Positions 14,221-22,514 of a DNA stretch of 56,466 nucleotides are shown here, piece by piece. The stretch covers positions 1 through 56,466 of the forward strand of contig CAYLPA010000001.1 in the NCBI GenBank assembly GCA_964385385.1. The letters are read 5' to 3'. The notes beneath the pieces are model-generated. The model made no database searches. It was not told where the DNA came from and was given only the letters and a program-made list of their open reading frames with translations. Source of the DNA: an uncultured Saprospiraceae bacterium. GTDB taxonomy: Bacteria > Bacteroidota > Bacteroidia > Bacteroidales > CAYLPA01. The position numbers and the translations under genes are program-made. The first letter of the stretch is position 1. Every line of letters begins with the position of its first letter.

Positions 14221-15633
14221 TTACTGCAACACAACTTTTTCAACCTTAACAAAATCTTTGTTTGCAAGTTTGATTAAGTAGATTCCCTTGGAGTAAGATG
14301 ATAAATCAATTTTACTAAAATAATCTGTAAGTTGACCACTATAAACAGCTTTGCCGTTTTGACTATAAATTTTAATATTAACCGGCTCAAGTTGATTTTC
14401 TATGGTGATATTAACAAGTCCATTTGTTGGGTTTGGATAAATATTAATACTATTTGAAATATCTTCAAAATTTTCGACACTTGATATAATTGCAACAGAA
14501 CAATCAAAAGAATGAACATCAGTTGTTGAACCTGTTCCAAGTTGCCCTATATAATTAGCACCTGTAACACATATAGAATTTGCATTATCTTTCAAAGCTG
14601 CTGTATGTAATCCATACATTGAATTTCCTGCATAAAGAGGTTTTGCCGGCGAAATCATTAACCAATTTTCGTTGGTAGATATAGCTTTTGGAGAATTCAT
14701 TTGAGTAGTATTTCCAGTACTAAGTTGACCATTACCATTAAAACCCCATGCATATAATGTTGAATCGCTTCTGAAAGCAAATGAAAAGCCGGAACCAGCC
14801 GAAACAGAAATCCAGTTAAAATAGGTTCCAATTTTTTCGGGATAATGTTTTTCTGTTGTGCTTCCAATCCCAAGTTGTCCATTACCATTAAATCCCCATG
14901 ACCATAAAGTACTATCTTTCTTTAGTGCCACACTAAACTCTCCACCTCCGCCAATATCTATCCATTTTTCGTTATTTAATTTAATAGGGTATAATTTATC
15001 TATTGTTGTACTATCTCCAAGTTGACCTGAATAATTAAATCCCCAAACCCATAAACTGCTATCGTTTTTTAGTGCCAATGTATGAAGACCACCCGAAGAA
15101 ATAACTTTCCAATCATTTTCCAAACCAACTCTTATAGGAAAATTTTTATCTACAAGAGTACTATCACCTAACTGTCCGCAATAATTATATCCCCATGCCC
15201 AAAGACTTCCATCCGTTTTAATTGCATATGAACTTGCATAAGATGCTTCAATAAAAGTCCAATCATTTGAACTACCAATTTGAACCGGTGAAGTTTTATC
15301 AGTATTTGAACTATCTCCCAAACAACCAATATAATTTAAACCCCATGCCCATAAACTATGGTCACTTTTTAGAGCTAAACAATGAGCTCCTCCGGCAACA
15401 ATATCAATCCAGTTTGTATCTGTTCCAATCTGGATTGGATTATATTGAGTTGTTTTATTACCAATTCCTAGTTGCCCATTTCCATTAAATCCCCATGACC
15501 AAAGTGTTCCGTCTGATTTTAATGCAACAGTAAATTCTCCACCGCATTTTACTTTTAACCATTTTGTTTGGGCATTGGTATTTAAAACCAATAATAATAA
15601 AACAATAAATAATAGGATATTAGTTTTTTTCAT
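14221..15633 (-). CDS. RCC1-repeat (beta-propeller) secreted protein with a T9SS C-terminal sorting domain
   Basis: Signal peptide, repeated W.WG.N..GQLG.G motifs, and C-terminus IYPNPTNGLVNI...KGIYLIKLANKDFVKVEKVVLQ. Confidence 0.88.
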   Translation of the reverse strand: MKKTNILLFIVLLLLVLNTNAQTKWLKVKCGGEFTVALKSDGTLWSWGFNGNGQLGIGNKTTQYNPIQIGTDTNWIDIVAGGAHCLALKSDHSLWAWGLNYIGCLGDSSNTDKTSPVQIGSSNDWTFIEASYASSYAIKTDGSLWAWGYNYCGQLGDSTLVDKNFPIRVGLENDWKVISSGGLHTLALKNDSSLWVWGFNYSGQLGDSTTIDKLYPIKLNNEKWIDIGGGGEFSVALKKDSTLWSWGFNGNGQLGIGSTTEKHYPEKIGTYFNWISVSAGSGFSFAFRSDSTLYAWGFNGNGQLSTGNTTQMNSPKAISTNENWLMISPAKPLYAGNSMYGLHTAALKDNANSICVTGANYIGQLGTGSTTDVHSFDCSVAIISSVENFEDISNSINIYPNPTNGLVNITIENQLEPVNIKIYSQNGKAVYSGQLTDYFSKIDLSSYSKGIYLIKLANKDFVKVEKVVLQ

Positions 15634-16017
15634 AATAATTCTTTTTTAATAGGATGAAATACAAATTTAATAAATTAAATTTATTTATACGCACTTTATA
15701 TCAATTTAATTGAATTAATCCTTAACAAAAGAAATCGTAGAGTTGTAAACTCAATTCAAAATCAAATTTTAAATTTTTATCAATAAATTTATTATTATTC
15801 AGACAAAAATAATATTTGTTATTTTTGCAATCAAATTTGTATATGACTTTAACGATTGTTCACTTAATTAGAATAAATATCTTTAATTTTAGAGATTATT
15901 TATTTTTTTATATAAATTTGAATTTATTAAATTTTGTTAAAATATAATTTTGTTACATTAAAATGTATAACTTTACCGTTTAATAAACAATATAAAATAT
16001 GTACAATATTTTAAAAA

Positions 16018-16749
16018 ATGAAGTTACCAACAAAAATAACACCTGATAGAATTAGAGATTCAATTGTACAAGTTTTTTTTAAATCAGATATTCCTTTTCT
16101 TCCTTTAATAGGATATTTTCACTCATATTTATCAAGTATGAGTTATGAGTATATAAGTGAAGTAAAGGAAAAGGAAAAGAAAAATATAATTTCATTAGAT
16201 TTTTTAAACCATCTATTTGTTAATACCGAACTTGGTGTAAAAATTAGTTTACATCCAACTAAATCAATAATATTTAATTGTACAGGTAATTATATTGGGT
16301 GGTCAAAATATAATATTGCAATTATTGATGTTATTGGTAAGTTCATTGAAGTTGGACTTATAAGGGAGGTTGTTCGAGTAGGAGTAAGGTTTACAAGTGA
16401 ATTCCCAAATATTAATATTCTAGAAAAAGTAAATTTTGATTACCATTATCAAATAGATAAAGAAAAAATTAAATCAGGTAAATTTAATATTGAATACTTA
16501 GATGAAAATAATTGTAGAGTTATATTAAATATTGTTTCAAATGCTCCTTTAAATCCATTTACTGATATTAAAGGGAAAGTTGATACTTTATCATTGATTG
16601 ATATTGATATTATAAAAGAAAAATTTACTCATTCAGATTTGAATAAAATAAAAGAAATAATTTTTGATACTCATGAAAAGCAAAAAAGAGTATTTTTCTC
16701 ATTATTGAAAAAAGAGTTTTTAGATGAGTTAAACCCAGAATATGATTAA
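16018..16749 (+). CDS. TIGR04255-like protein of unknown function
   Basis: 243 aa. The N-terminal I.DSIVQVFF, the central VVRVGVRFTSEF (compare the RIGLRYIN motif) and the C-terminal H-containing helix resemble the family as I recall it. Confidence 0.55.
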   Translation: MKLPTKITPDRIRDSIVQVFFKSDIPFLPLIGYFHSYLSSMSYEYISEVKEKEKKNIISLDFLNHLFVNTELGVKISLHPTKSIIFNCTGNYIGWSKYNIAIIDVIGKFIEVGLIREVVRVGVRFTSEFPNINILEKVNFDYHYQIDKEKIKSGKFNIEYLDENNCRVILNIVSNAPLNPFTDIKGKVDTLSLIDIDIIKEKFTHSDLNKIKEIIFDTHEKQKRVFFSLLKKEFLDELNPEYD

Positions 16750-16751
16750 TT

Positions 16752-17342
16752 ATGGATGCAATTATTCTTAGTATTCCCAGTAATTATAGAGTTTTAAACA
16801 AACAGAATAAAACCGTTGGAAAGCTTAATTATAATCAAATTCTTTCGAGAATGTTTTTTGAGATTCAACCAGATATTAAAGTTTTTAATTCTATAAAATT
16901 AGATATTTCTAAAACAATTAATATTATTCAAAAATTTATTCGAGACTATAATTCAAAAATTGAATTTTTCAATGATATTAAATCAAAACTTGTGAATTCA
17001 GCATTTGTAAAATGTAGTGTTAAATTTGCTCAGTTAAATCCTGATAAAATTGGGGTTGAAGTTACTAACTCAAAAACAATTTACTTTTTTATTAGAAAAG
17101 ACCAATACAAAATTCATTTTGAAGTATTTTTTAATCATCAATTGGAAACAGAGCCATTTGAATGTGTATTAAATGTATTTGACTGTAATAATCCAATATT
17201 AAATGCAAGTGGTTCATTTGATTATGTATTTGAAAGTTTATCTCAATTAATTCCCAACGATAAAGAGATTTATTTAGATTATATTGATAACAGTTCACAA
17301 TATGGAATATCCGAAAGAACTTTTGCCAAAAGTTGGTTATAA
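16752..17342 (+). CDS. Hypothetical protein (196 aa), second gene of the three-gene module
   Basis: ATG 2 nt after the upstream stop. No family recognised. Confidence 0.65.
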   Translation: MDAIILSIPSNYRVLNKQNKTVGKLNYNQILSRMFFEIQPDIKVFNSIKLDISKTINIIQKFIRDYNSKIEFFNDIKSKLVNSAFVKCSVKFAQLNPDKIGVEVTNSKTIYFFIRKDQYKIHFEVFFNHQLETEPFECVLNVFDCNNPILNASGSFDYVFESLSQLIPNDKEIYLDYIDNSSQYGISERTFAKSWL

Positions 17343-17922
17343 AAGAATCGAATCTAAATTGTACGGATTTTATCTCCTGAGACGTACATTAAAAAAGAAT
17401 ATTTTTGACTCATCAACAGAGCAATTGAAAAATGAATTTCTTGAGGAAGATGGAAAAGATATAAGGTTTTTGTCATGGTCATGCAATCTTTATAATCTTT
17501 ATAAATATGAGTATCTGAAAATATTAATTACGAATAAATATCTTACAAAAAAGGAATGGGATTTTGAAACTCCTGTTGAAACTCCAGCCTTAAATGATGA
17601 TTACATAATTATAGATGAGTATGGTTGCTATTTATTAGATATCTTAAGCGTTATTAAAAACTTACAAGTCCCTTATTCTAAAGGTAAAGTTAATAGAGTT
17701 TATGCTAGACCAAAATTGTACCATTCTCCTAACCTTTCTAATTTTTGGCATTTTGAAATTAGGTGGATAGATTATGATAATAATTTGATTAGCAAAAATC
17801 CATCAAAATGGAAAAACACCCTTGTTGCTTCTATTCGTTCTTTTATTCGTAACTATTGTAAACCGATTGATGAAATAAACAATTCTGATATTCCAAAATT
17901 AGATATTTCTGAATACTCGTAA
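17302..17922 (+). CDS. Hypothetical protein (about 206 aa), third gene of the three-gene module
   Basis: First ATG in the ORF 17284..17922 (the track start is TTG). It overlaps the upstream gene by 41 nt. No family recognised. Confidence 0.6.
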   Translation: MEYPKELLPKVGYKRIESKLYGFYLLRRTLKKNIFDSSTEQLKNEFLEEDGKDIRFLSWSCNLYNLYKYEYLKILITNKYLTKKEWDFETPVETPALNDDYIIIDEYGCYLLDILSVIKNLQVPYSKGKVNRVYARPKLYHSPNLSNFWHFEIRWIDYDNNLISKNPSKWKNTLVASIRSFIRNYCKPIDEINNSDIPKLDISEYS

Positions 17923-18221
17923 AGTTATGTTTAAATAAGCTTAATTAGTTATATTTAATTCTTTAATGCTATATAATTAATTCCCATCTTAAAATATCAA
18001 AAACAAATATTCTAAATCCGTGGCAATATTATTCTTAATTTTGCATTATAAATAGCGCAACTAAGAAAACTCAATATTTTTTTGTGGCTTTTTTAGAAAG
18101 CTTCAAGAACGAGACTTGCGTAAAATTTAAATTCAGGAGTTCGTACGGATGATTGGTTTTAAATATGAGTGTAACGATTTATTGATGTTTTCTTAAAGCC
18201 ACTAATTAAATTTTAAACTCA

Positions 18222-19133
18222 ATGTCAATAGAAGTAAAAAATATTACAAAGCTTTATGGAGAGCAAAAAGCTCTCGACAGCGTTTCCTTTGAAATTAAAA
18301 GCGGAGAAGTTGTTGGTTTGTTAGGACCAAACGGAGCCGGAAAATCTACGATGATGAAAATAATCACCTGCTTTTTGCCACCAACTTCCGGTGATGTAAA
18401 AGTCAGTGGATTCGACATCTATGAGCAATCTATGGAAATAAGAAAAAGAGTAGGATATTTACCTGAGAACAATCCCCTTTACATTGACATGTATGTGAAA
18501 GAATATCTTGAATTTATAGCAGGTGTCCATAAACTCGGCAAATCGAAAAAGAAACGCATAGAGGAAATAATTGAAATAACAGGACTTGAAATAGAGATGA
18601 GCAAAAAAATCGGTGCTCTTTCAAGAGGCTACAGGCAGCGTATCGGGCTTGCTCAAGCACTAATTCATGAGCCGGAAGTTCTGATAATGGATGAGCCAAC
18701 TTCGGGGCTTGATCCAAATCAATTAGTTGAAATCCGAAATCTGATAAAAAAAATTGGAAAAGAAAAAACCGTCTTGCTTTCAACTCACATTATGCAGGAA
18801 GTTGAAGCAGTTTGCGACAGAGCAATTATTATTGACAGGGGTAAAATCGTTGCTGACGATTCAACTGAAAACCTTCATCAGATTTCATCAGGGAAAGATT
18901 TTGTTATTGTTGAATTCAACAAGGAAATTTCGAAATCGCTTATTGAAGGAATTGAAGGTGTGAAATCTGTTAAAAATATTAAAGAGAATAAATGGCAGAT
19001 TGAAGCTTCAAGCAAGAAAGATGTAAGAGAAGAAATCTTTCAATTTGCTGTTCAGAAAAAACTTTCTGTTCTATCAATGAATAAAGAAGAACAAAGCCTG
19101 GAGAAGGTTTTTCAATCTTTAACAAAAAAATAA
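18222..19133 (+). CDS. gldA: Gliding-motility-associated ABC transporter ATP-binding protein GldA-like
   Basis: [37 protein letters not shown]...., YLPE.NPLY.DMYV.EYL, LSRGYRQR signature, about 300 aa. Confidence 0.8.
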   Translation: MSIEVKNITKLYGEQKALDSVSFEIKSGEVVGLLGPNGAGKSTMMKIITCFLPPTSGDVKVSGFDIYEQSMEIRKRVGYLPENNPLYIDMYVKEYLEFIAGVHKLGKSKKKRIEEIIEITGLEIEMSKKIGALSRGYRQRIGLAQALIHEPEVLIMDEPTSGLDPNQLVEIRNLIKKIGKEKTVLLSTHIMQEVEAVCDRAIIIDRGKIVADDSTENLHQISSGKDFVIVEFNKEISKSLIEGIEGVKSVKNIKENKWQIEASSKKDVREEIFQFAVQKKLSVLSMNKEEQSLEKVFQSLTKK

Positions 19134-21311: not shown

Positions 21312-22514
21312 ATGGAGACATTTAAATTAAAAGCTGAAGATCCACTATTAAATGATAATTACGACAACTCATTATATAATCAATCAGGTTTCATTTTAAA
21401 TCTTCAAACACTAATTTCTGATACAGTTGAACCTCCATATTCTATTTCTTTGAATGGGGATTGGGGCTCAGGTAAAACTACTGTATTAAAAAGTTTAGAA
21501 GAGGATTTGATAAAAGATAAGTTTGAAGTATTATGGTTTAATCCTTGGGAATATGAAAGGTCAAATGATGTTGTTCTTGTTTTCTTACAGCAATTATCAA
21601 ATCTTGCAAAAGGCGATTATTCTGATGTATTAACAGAGCTTTCAATTATTGGGAAAACCATATTAGCTGGAGCAGTTGATACAGTTGCAAGGTTTTTTAC
21701 AAATGGTAATCTTTCTGTAGAAAATATTCAAAAAATTCATGAATTAGTTGAAAGAGATTCACAAAGTAAGTATGATACCTATTCGAGCTTTGTAGATGAA
21801 ATAAAATCAGACTTTAAAAAGTTAACTAATAAAATCTCAGAGAAAAAACAAGACAAGCCATTAATCATCATTCTTGATGACCTTGATCGCTGTTTACCTG
21901 AAAATGCATTAGAATTAATAGAAGCTTTAAAGAATATTTTTATTGTTAAGGATGCGAAAGCAATTTTTATTGCTGGAATAGACACAAATATTGCAAAAAT
22001 GTTTATTCAGTCAAAGTATAAGGGATTACCTGATGAGTTTGCGTATAATTATTTTAAAAAGATTTTCAATTCTACTATTAATCTGCCAAATTTTGATAAG
22101 ATTCAAATTCATAATTTCATTGATAGTTATTTAAAAAAATGGAGTACAAATTTAATTAACTCAGATGAAAAAGAATTTATAGCAGGTTGTTTAATTTATG
22201 CAGAAGTCAAAAGTATAAGATCAGTTCAAAACATATTTGCTAATTTTTATTTATATAAGAAACTAAATAAAAATTCAAGTTTGAATAATAATCAAGTAAT
22301 GATTCTTAATGTTTTCAAGGAAATATGGCCATCAGAATACGAAAGATTATTAATGCAATGCAGGAAAAATCCTAGTGTTAGTATTAGTAATATTCTTAGT
22401 CGCGAAATTGATCCAATTGATCGAAAAAATGATGATAAGCTATCATATAAATTTAATCAAACATATTCACATAAGTATTTTCGGGAAACAGAAGGTAGTC
22501 AACTGATATATTAG
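21312..22514 (+). CDS. KAP-family P-loop NTPase
   Basis: LNGDWGSGKTT (Walker A) and PLIIILDDLDRCLPENALELIEALKNIF (KAP Walker B region), 400 aa. Confidence 0.85.
   Translation: METFKLKAEDPLLNDNYDNSLYNQSGFILNLQTLISDTVEPPYSISLNGDWGSGKTTVLKSLEEDLIKDKFEVLWFNPWEYERSNDVVLVFLQQLSNLAKGDYSDVLTELSIIGKTILAGAVDTVARFFTNGNLSVENIQKIHELVERDSQSKYDTYSSFVDEIKSDFKKLTNKISEKKQDKPLIIILDDLDRCLPENALELIEALKNIFIVKDAKAIFIAGIDTNIAKMFIQSKYKGLPDEFAYNYFKKIFNSTINLPNFDKIQIHNFIDSYLKKWSTNLINSDEKEFIAGCLIYAEVKSIRSVQNIFANFYLYKKLNKNSSLNNNQVMILNVFKEIWPSEYERLLMQCRKNPSVSISNILSREIDPIDRKNDDKLSYKFNQTYSHKYFRETEGSQLIY

Follow-up and report, generated by a model that had tools for sequence, protein, structure and literature searches.

In a 56,466-nucleotide (nt) stretch of DNA from an uncultured Saprospiraceae bacterium (contig CAYLPA010000001.1; this whole stretch is called the window below), three small genes on the forward strand, between positions 16018 and 17922, form one self-contained, horizontally mobile operon. 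Gene 1 (16018–16749) encodes a TIGR04255-family protein of 243 amino acids (aa). Gene 2 (16752–17342) encodes a 196-aa protein from an unnamed, fast-evolving acidic family, and gene 3 (17302–17922) a protein of 206 aa, counted from its ATG, that belongs to a large unnamed family. We see an even chance that this trio is an undescribed three-component module of the toxin-antitoxin type, serving abortive infection or addiction. In such a module gene 1 would be the hub, gene 2 the acidic neutraliser and gene 3 a new effector.

The trio is a unit. A search with gene 3 alone, in one genome per species from 185,579 species, retrieved 26 loci, all of them in Bacteroidota. The hosts include Saprospiraceae, Lewinellaceae, Chitinophagales, Cytophagales, Prevotellaceae, Candidatus Symbiothrix, Arenibacter palladensis DSM 17539 and Pedobacter superstes P351. 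At 20 of the 26 loci a TIGR04255 gene, gene 2 and gene 3 follow each other in the same order and orientation, and all eight further metagenomic contexts that we reached through homologues of gene 1 (down to 31% identity) hold the same trio. The three genes, which an initial annotation of this DNA had taken for one module, do co-occur elsewhere. At locus L027 the first gene encodes a divergent TIGR04255 protein (110 bits). The remaining six loci are one with a broken gene 3 (L041), three with gene 3 remnants (L033, L034 and L039), one at a contig end (L040) and one that begins with another gene (L038). Wherever gene 3 is intact, gene 2 is present too. In four out of four decayed copies it is gene 3 that is broken or truncated, and L041 retains intact genes 1 and 2. 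The three genes have also diverged together (Mantel r between 0.77 and 0.87, p = 0.0005, which is the minimum for 2000 permutations). In a tree of genes 1 and 3 the window copy groups with copies from Chitinophagales and Saprospiraceae (clade support 99/99), and the copies from Prevotellaceae, Bacteroidales and Symbiothrix fall into a separate clade (100/100).

The genes are packed tightly. Only 2 nt separate the stop of gene 1 from the start of gene 2 (TAATTATG), and genes 2 and 3 overlap by 41 nt (17302–17342, forward strand) in different frames, as can be read directly from the sequence. The list of open reading frames (ORFs) offers a TTG at 17284 as an alternative start for gene 3. We place the start at the ATG at 17302 because the N-terminus that follows, M-x-Y-P-x-x-L-L-P, is kept in homologues. 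The 41 nt encode this conserved N-terminus as well as the tail of gene 2 (Y-G-I-S...). An overlap of 41 nt is the commonest layout in the window copy's clade of the cassette tree (seven out of nine members), and it is identical at L001, L003, L004, L010, L014 and L019. In the remaining clades genes 2 and 3 overlap by 35–68 nt or are 3–25 nt apart. Where there is no overlap, the gene 2 tail is gone and the N-terminal motif of gene 3 is retained; the tail is confined to the clade in which gene 2 overlaps gene 3. The overlap is consistent with translational coupling. AT-rich spacers flank the module on both sides, 384 bp upstream (15634–16017, 14.6% G+C) and 299 bp downstream (17923–18221, 24.7% G+C, preceding an ABC-ATPase gene). 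These spacers, like the coordinates and the spacing of the three genes, are as the initial annotation had described them.

The base composition of the module is unusual for this genome. The G+C content is 23.4% in gene 1, 23.9% in gene 2 and 28.0% in gene 3, and 24.8% for the module as a whole, in a genome of 30.2%. The first estimate of 25–27% for the module was about right, but the 45% given at the same time for the nearby genes gldA and metK was wrong; they have 35.5% and 35.3%. The compositional anomaly is real, yet smaller than it had appeared. Among segments of the same size the 1905-bp module lies at the 1.7th percentile of the genome. Among the genome's 2067 ORFs of 180 aa or more, gene 1 ranks at percentile 1.0 and gene 2 at 1.3; gene 3 is unremarkable (19th).

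The genome contains a single copy of the cassette, since a six-frame search of the whole genome found one TIGR04255 match only. In related families of the order gldA and metK are likewise linked, and the trio is missing. TIGR04255 was found in none of seven sampled same-order genomes and in none of 14 control genomes. Hence the horizontal acquisition of an accessory operon, as first proposed, is supported by the 1.7th-percentile composition, the single copy, the lack of TIGR04255 in the seven same-order genomes and the gldA-metK pair without the trio. The nearest comparison genomes are related to ours only at the level of the order (their gldA genes are 53–68% identical); upstream synteny is not conserved in them, and neither an exact empty site nor the boundaries of the insertion can be defined from them.

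Gene 3 has no match at E ≤ 1 in Pfam, NCBIfam, PADLOC or PHROG, and its profile found nothing significant among the sequences of the PDB. The profiles for genes 2 and 3 were built from 48–53 sequences. Among 1.84 billion representatives, the gene 3 profile collects 937 clusters at E ≤ 1e-3 and 651 at E ≤ 1e-10, where a cluster is defined at 50% identity. The AlphaFold2 model is very confident, with a predicted local distance difference test (pLDDT) of 94.5 and a predicted TM-score (pTM) of 0.90, and shows a beta-rich alpha+beta protein built round an antiparallel sheet. Across 187 diverse, non-redundant sequences Ser60, His141 and Trp149 are conserved in 100%, Pro143, Asn147 and His150 in 99%, Pro9 in 97% and Arg27 in 94%. 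Besides the N-terminus, the motifs are R27, D/S58-x-S60-T-N-L-L-G and H141-T-P-x3-N147-F-W149-H150-F-S, the last of which spans the loop of a beta-hairpin in the model. Gene 3 looks enzyme-like because its first six residues named above are invariant or nearly so and because the model is confident; mapped onto the model, the pattern of conserved residues suggests a catalytic site.

The superfamily of gene 3 probably extends beyond the 937 clusters. In two other TIGR04255 cassettes the third genes (L056:356-910(-) and L064:433-954(-)) weakly match the gene 3 profile, and their matches lie exactly at the hairpin, where E-H-x-P-x3-[ND]-Y-S-H is kept and little else.

Gene 2 differs from its two neighbours in how fast it evolves. 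The mean pairwise identity is 19% for gene 2 and 31–32% for genes 1 and 3, which makes gene 2 the fastest-evolving member of the trio. The family is acidic in 98% of its members, with a median isoelectric point (pI) of 4.76. A conserved beta-rich core (about residues 95–165) follows a variable N-terminus. Gene 2 has no Pfam, NCBIfam, PHROG or PDB-sequence match, neither as a single sequence nor as a profile. We treated a CARF3 match in PADLOC (E 0.0075, 14 bits) as noise, and likewise the weak PRD-domain matches found in eight of 48 family members (best E 0.0015). The initial annotation had recognised nothing in genes 2 and 3 either. Two gene 2 homologues, P0081 and P0089, carry the label "predicted HTH domain antitoxin" at JGI; a Pfam scan of the 48 family members matched neither a helix-turn-helix (HTH) domain nor UPF0175.

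Gene 1 does belong to the TIGR04255 family, as its first reading suggested. It matches TIGR04255.1, an NCBIfam subfamily model of uncharacterised function, with 67.9 bits (E 1.1e-18; model positions 7–252 of 252), for a curated cut-off of 30 bits. Its homologues carry the name TIGR04255 at JGI and NCBI, and its C-terminal half matches phrog_5464 (7e-12). A literature search found no paper that mentions TIGR04255 or IPR026349, which agrees with the initial annotation, where no described function was given.

The AlphaFold2 model of gene 1, made from a 59-sequence alignment, has a pLDDT of 91.2 and a pTM of 0.87. It shows two successive strand-helix-four-strand-helix repeats (residues 12–111 and 117–229), and the repeat topology, S1-H1-S2-S5-H2, fits two repeats like those of the TATA-binding protein (TBP). 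All 29 Foldseek matches in the PDB at E ≤ 1e-3 are TATA-binding proteins (probability about 1.0, best E 4e-5). Arginine kinase and McsB match the model at E 0.02–0.03 with query TM-scores (TMq) of 0.34–0.38, equal to or better than TBP by this measure. Based on the model, we call gene 1 a putative two-lobed TBP-like alpha/beta protein, which could be a binding module or an enzyme. Five residues are invariant (Y92, R124, S192, H219 and K223), and with G94, W95, R120, G122, Y125 and D195 they make up the invariant or near-invariant set. The conserved residues concentrate in the second repeat. Across the family the protein is acidic, with a median pI of 5.8.

TIGR04255 genes are not tied to one set of partners. 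In a phylum-wide sample of 401 genomes TIGR04255 occurs in 25 and the gene 3 family in three. We compared the 28 other TIGR04255 loci of this sample, none of which holds the gene 2/gene 3 pair of the window. At 22 of these 28 loci two small genes come next in succession, the first of them starting −83 to +12 nt (mostly −26 to +12) from the TIGR04255 stop. Of these 22 loci, three have PemK/MazF as their third gene (best E 8.5e-15), one a gene that weakly resembles HEPN, one a DUF7689 gene and 17 an unannotated one. The middle genes of these cassettes encode acidic proteins (median pI 4.9), and a few of them carry HTH domains. Only the middle genes of L064 (E 3.5e-4) and L067 (E 0.01) matched gene 2. 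We rejected the L064 match as a universal docking motif: the third gene of L064 is gene-3-like too, so that this cassette carries a distant version of the same pair.

The pair formed by genes 2 and 3 is not tied to TIGR04255 either. At three loci it stands behind a conserved protein of 115–118 aa instead: L038:7134-8621 (in Pedobacter superstes P351), L083:7104-8630 (IMG/VR UViG_3300048856_000135) and L086:332-1707 (genome G292). The first proteins of L038 and L083 are 46% identical, and one of them has a sub-threshold match to DUF3467 (2.6e-4). From these sequences, the hub position appears to be swappable. In genome G301 (L085:271-2040) the gene ahead of genes 2 and 3 encodes a protein of 199 aa, for which hhalign finds no link to TIGR04255. 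Its C-terminus (…ENFLNEFLEKYN) is similar to the C-terminal motif conserved in gene 1 (…FL..LNPEY), and the protein may be a shortened, divergent hub.

What surrounds the cassette changes from locus to locus. At L001 the neighbours are a type I restriction-modification HsdR gene, a DUF4062-HATPase-Fic protein and a Piwi (prokaryotic Argonaute, pAgo) protein. At L004/5 they are an HTH protein, a Zeta-like protein, Shedu SduA_C, a KAP NTPase and an N6-methyltransferase, and at L010/11 HipA_2, RES and SocA/Panacea. L008 has two integrases and a TrwB-like protein. A relaxase and a type IV secretion system (T4SS) coupling protein accompany the cassette at L012/13, together with GmrSD (L012) or an integrase (L013). 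Around 15 more loci, 139 neighbour proteins match 186 Pfam families, none of which is recurrent; the homologues do not lie in a conserved housekeeping context, which would have spoken against the accessory operon first proposed. PADLOC found strong matches to type I restriction-modification, ZorA/ZorB, PtuA/PtuB, Ppl and AriA among these 139 proteins, as well as PDC candidates.

How could such a module work? Gene 3 would be the effector, an enzyme of a new fold with an active site of Ser60, His141 and His150, joined by Arg27 and Asn147. Judging by the MazF/PemK and HEPN-like proteins that sister cassettes have in the same position, the most plausible target would be a phosphodiester substrate, for example RNA. 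Gene 2, acidic and fast-evolving, would bind gene 3 and neutralise it, with the 41-nt overlap coupling the translation of the two. Gene 1 would be the conserved TIGR04255 hub, which may sense a trigger (a nucleic acid, a nucleotide or a phage protein), stabilise the complex of genes 2 and 3, or recruit the substrate. A role of gene 1 in the service of a toxin is plausible because its predicted topology is that of a two-repeat TBP-like protein and because the tandem TBP-like domains of RnlA are a precedent.

We favour a toxin-antitoxin module because the middle protein is acidic and the fastest to evolve, because gene 3 is never intact without gene 2 and because decay is always in gene 3. We also favour it because sister cassettes hold MazF/PemK in the position of gene 3, because the neighbours include defence and mobile-element genes in no conserved neighbourhood, and because the trio is strictly linked, co-diverges and has interchangeable partners on both sides. 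Hence we infer a defence or toxin-type nature for the operon, which the initial annotation had considered possible. One could extend this to a joint claim. Gene 3 would then be a new enzymatic effector fold with a Ser/His/His (+Arg) site and more than 900 clusters. TIGR04255 proteins, two-lobed and TBP-like (or phosphagen-kinase-like), would be the sensor hubs in a large and unpublished class of abortive-infection systems, modular and built of three genes, in which the hub swaps with a DUF3467-like 115-aa protein and the effector with MazF or HEPN. We hold this joint claim only tentatively and would rather doubt than assert it as a whole.

A number of findings weigh against a toxin-antitoxin module. 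Gene 3 has no fold relative in the PDB (best Foldseek E 0.38, TM ≤ 0.15) or in BFVD (best E 0.23). Calling it a toxin is a matter of position and analogy only, because no known toxin superfamily (MazF/PemK, HEPN, PIN, RelE/BECR, HicA or ADP-ribosyltransferase (ART)) is matched by its sequence profile or its fold. With a median pI of 5.9 most members of the family are not basic. In gene 2, Pfam recognises neither a DNA-binding domain (HTH, ribbon-helix-helix (RHH) or other) nor an antitoxin domain, and the window's own gene 2 is near neutral (pI 7.6). A search for a docking motif shared by gene 2 and the 22 other middle genes found none. The superpositions of gene 1 on TBP reach TM-scores of only 0.25–0.45 with root-mean-square deviations of 9–11 Å, and the TM-score of 0.38 to arginine kinase leaves an enzymatic instead of a binding role open for the modelled protein. 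The genomic contexts also give mixed signals. Our data support an association of the cassette with defence islands and mobile elements qualitatively, without a matched control. L003 and L014 lie among housekeeping genes (tRNA synthetases at L014). In PLSDB there was no tblastn match to gene 3, in GenBank phages there was no match to gene 1, and IMG/VR yielded one contig with cassette genes, so that the cassette is rare on sequenced plasmids and phages.

One could also argue that genes 2 and 3 alone are the toxin-antitoxin pair and that gene 1 is only a DNA-binding autoregulator, with a TBP-like saddle that sits on the AT-rich promoter. This would explain why gene 2 lacks an HTH, RHH or other DNA-binding domain of its own, and the fold of gene 1 would suit the task, given that TBP binds DNA with its concave sheet. 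Genes 2 and 3 also occur with other first genes, which would make gene 1 dispensable for the core pair, and a few middle genes of the other TIGR04255 cassettes bring their own HTH. But the TM-scores of gene 1 to TBP are low and the protein is acidic. Its conserved residues in the second repeat (R120, G122, R124, Y125, S192, D195, H219 and K223) look like a pocket rather than an extended DNA surface, if they cluster in space as we suppose. Nor is there a convincing operator palindrome above the chance level of the AT-rich upstream spacer. Taken together, we regard an autoregulator as distinctly unlikely. That the cassette is non-toxic cargo of mobile elements is rather unlikely, too. Such cargo could have an anti-defence or exclusion function, or could be a complex that modifies nucleic acids or nucleotides, with gene 1 (phosphagen-kinase-like) and gene 3 as enzymes and gene 2 as scaffold. 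The cassette often adjoins a relaxase, a T4SS coupling protein or integrases, gene 1 has phage relatives (phrog_5464) and weakly resembles arginine kinase and McsB in structure (TMq up to 0.38), and gene 3 resembles no known toxin. However, many copies lie outside recognisable mobile elements, Pfam and NCBIfam recognise no ATP-binding motif in the sequence of gene 1, and neither the genuine MazF/PemK toxins that sister cassettes carry in place of gene 3 nor the loss of gene 3 first during decay would be expected of such cargo.

It is very improbable that the trio is a housekeeping or regulatory operon of the ordinary, lineage-specific kind, or that it consists of non-functional ORFs in AT-rich DNA. 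Some loci do have tRNA synthetase, RND pump or metabolic genes as neighbours, and the window copy itself lies beside gldA and metK. The distribution is sporadic, though (3 of 401 genomes for the gene 3 family, 25 of 401 for TIGR04255), the sampled same-order genomes lack TIGR04255, and no neighbourhood is conserved. Strong protein conservation, invariant residues and two very confident AlphaFold2 models indicate that the genes are real but not part of the core genome. Of these readings, the three-component toxin-antitoxin module has the best support.

The surroundings of the trio in the window add a few observations. Upstream lie cargo genes of the type IX secretion system (T9SS) with Por_Secre_tail sorting domains. 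Downstream follow the ABC ATPase (gldA in the initial annotation), metK, a KAP NTPase gene and queA, so that the site between T9SS cargo genes and gldA had been correctly located. The KAP gene (21312–22514, forward strand) encodes a solitary KAP-family P-loop NTPase (Pfam 2e-35) at 27% G+C, and it is probably another accessory or defence-type insertion near the module. Two other loci deserve mention. Directly upstream of the closest relative of the window cassette (L001:2279-5849), genes for a DUF4062-HATPase_c_4-Fic-like protein and a 689-aa Piwi-domain (pAgo) protein adjoin the HsdR gene. In a metagenomic genome (L003:317-6900) the trio lies between the gene of a resistance-nodulation-division (RND) efflux pump (ACR_tran) and the gene of its outer-membrane factor (OEP), and thus appears to have been inserted into the pump operon.

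Three candidate −7 boxes that match the Bacteroidota-type motif TAnnTTTG lie on the forward strand upstream of gene 1 (15945–15952, 15913–15920 and 15820–15827), the first two at 65 and 97 nt from its ATG. They may act as the promoter of the module; the same motif occurs 0.89 times per kb on the forward strand of the window. A scan for sigma-70 promoters, which is uninformative for Bacteroidota, gave 27 sites where 22 are expected. In the downstream spacer (17923–18221) neither an intrinsic terminator nor an RNA family was found, and there is no Rfam family, tRNA or meaningful (tandem) repeat within 15400–18400. A 17-nt inverted repeat (15579–15595 and 18149–18165, 16 of 17 positions complementary) encloses the module and both spacers. 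We rejected it as a terminal repeat or att site, since its left arm lies inside an RCC1 gene and about 0.65 such pairs are expected by chance by our own estimate for 3 kb of the same composition. The repeat is probably fortuitous.

If the trio is a toxin-antitoxin or abortive-infection system, it would bring a new effector enzyme fold into bacterial immunity, together with a new kind of governing subunit that is TBP-like, not SecB-like. It would also give a function to TIGR04255, a family name in use in the annotation of many phyla for more than ten years. For biochemistry gene 3 is a clear-cut target, being small and confidently modelled, with four or five invariant polar residues. Relatives occur in cultured hosts (Arenibacter palladensis DSM 17539, Pedobacter superstes P351 and Sphingobacterium bambusae). 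The swapping of partners on both sides could serve as a natural experiment in the wiring of such modules.

How does the trio compare with systems that are already known? In PADLOC-DB v2.0.0 (2023) no model is matched by gene 1 or gene 3, and gene 2 has only the CARF3 noise match. Our literature search found no published description of TIGR04255-led three-gene cassettes, and the HicA class 8 modules (PMC10865869) are not the system of the trio. For TBP-like folds in toxin-antitoxin systems it turned up only studies of RnlA and HEPN. With classical type II toxin-antitoxin pairs (MazEF, HicAB, RelBE) the trio shares small, adjacent genes that overlap or are coupled, an acidic, fast-evolving partner that comes first, and a mobile or defence-island context. 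Unlike these pairs, it has an extra conserved first gene and lacks a DNA-binding antitoxin domain. Gene 3, at about 206 aa, is also roughly twice the size of a classical toxin, and its fold matches none of MazF, RelE, PIN, HEPN or HicA.

A parallel for gene 1 is RnlA, a defence toxin with two tandem TBP-like domains, the first of which (TBP1) is needed for binding of the RNA substrate (PMC8266594; PMC3710099). Both in RnlA/LsoA (RNase LS; the RnlAB/LsoAB anti-phage toxin-antitoxin systems) and, going by the predicted fold of gene 1, in the trio, tandem TBP-like domains are tied to a toxin, if gene 3 is one. In RnlA, however, a single polypeptide joins these domains to a HEPN RNase, and it is the HEPN domain to which the antitoxin RnlB binds. 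In the trio the putative TBP-like protein is separate and ends after its second repeat, so that it is no TBP-HEPN fusion of the RnlA type; a distinct middle protein stands in between, and gene 3 is beta-rich without a HEPN match. No sequence similarity to RnlA was detected in the trio, and RnlA is not among the top 50 Foldseek matches of gene 1. The other TIGR04255-led cassettes resemble the trio in having TIGR04255 first, two small genes next, an acidic middle protein and a sporadic distribution. They differ in their third genes: of 22, three are PemK/MazF and one is weakly HEPN, and among the sampled cassettes only L056 and L064 have remote relatives of gene 3.

The closest functional analogues are the toxin-antitoxin-chaperone (TAC) systems, such as CmdTAC and HigBA-SecB(TA) of M. 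tuberculosis. In CmdTAC the third protein is the sensor of infection, and its release leads to degradation of the antitoxin (Vassallo et al. 2024, PMC11618068). As we propose for the trio, a conserved third protein governs a toxin-antitoxin pair, and both kinds of system consist of three small, tightly linked genes with a modular toxin position in mobile or defence contexts. The trio is nevertheless not a member of the TAC class, because the defining SecB-like chaperone is absent: neither Pfam nor NCBIfam finds a SecB match for gene 1, whose model resembles TBP-like folds and not SecB. The third component is a SecB-like chaperone in TAC systems and a TIGR04255 protein with a predicted TBP-like two-repeat fold in the trio. 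No segment like the chaperone-addiction segment of TAC systems was identified in the trio, and gene 3, unlike the TAC toxins, is neither an ADP-ribosyltransferase nor a HigB and matches no known fold. The gene order differs as well. It is toxin, antitoxin, chaperone in TAC systems, and would be hub, adaptor, effector in the trio if the proposed roles are correct. What is new here is a different pair of adaptor and effector, an effector with a confident model but no detectable fold relative, and evidence for a hub that can be swapped.

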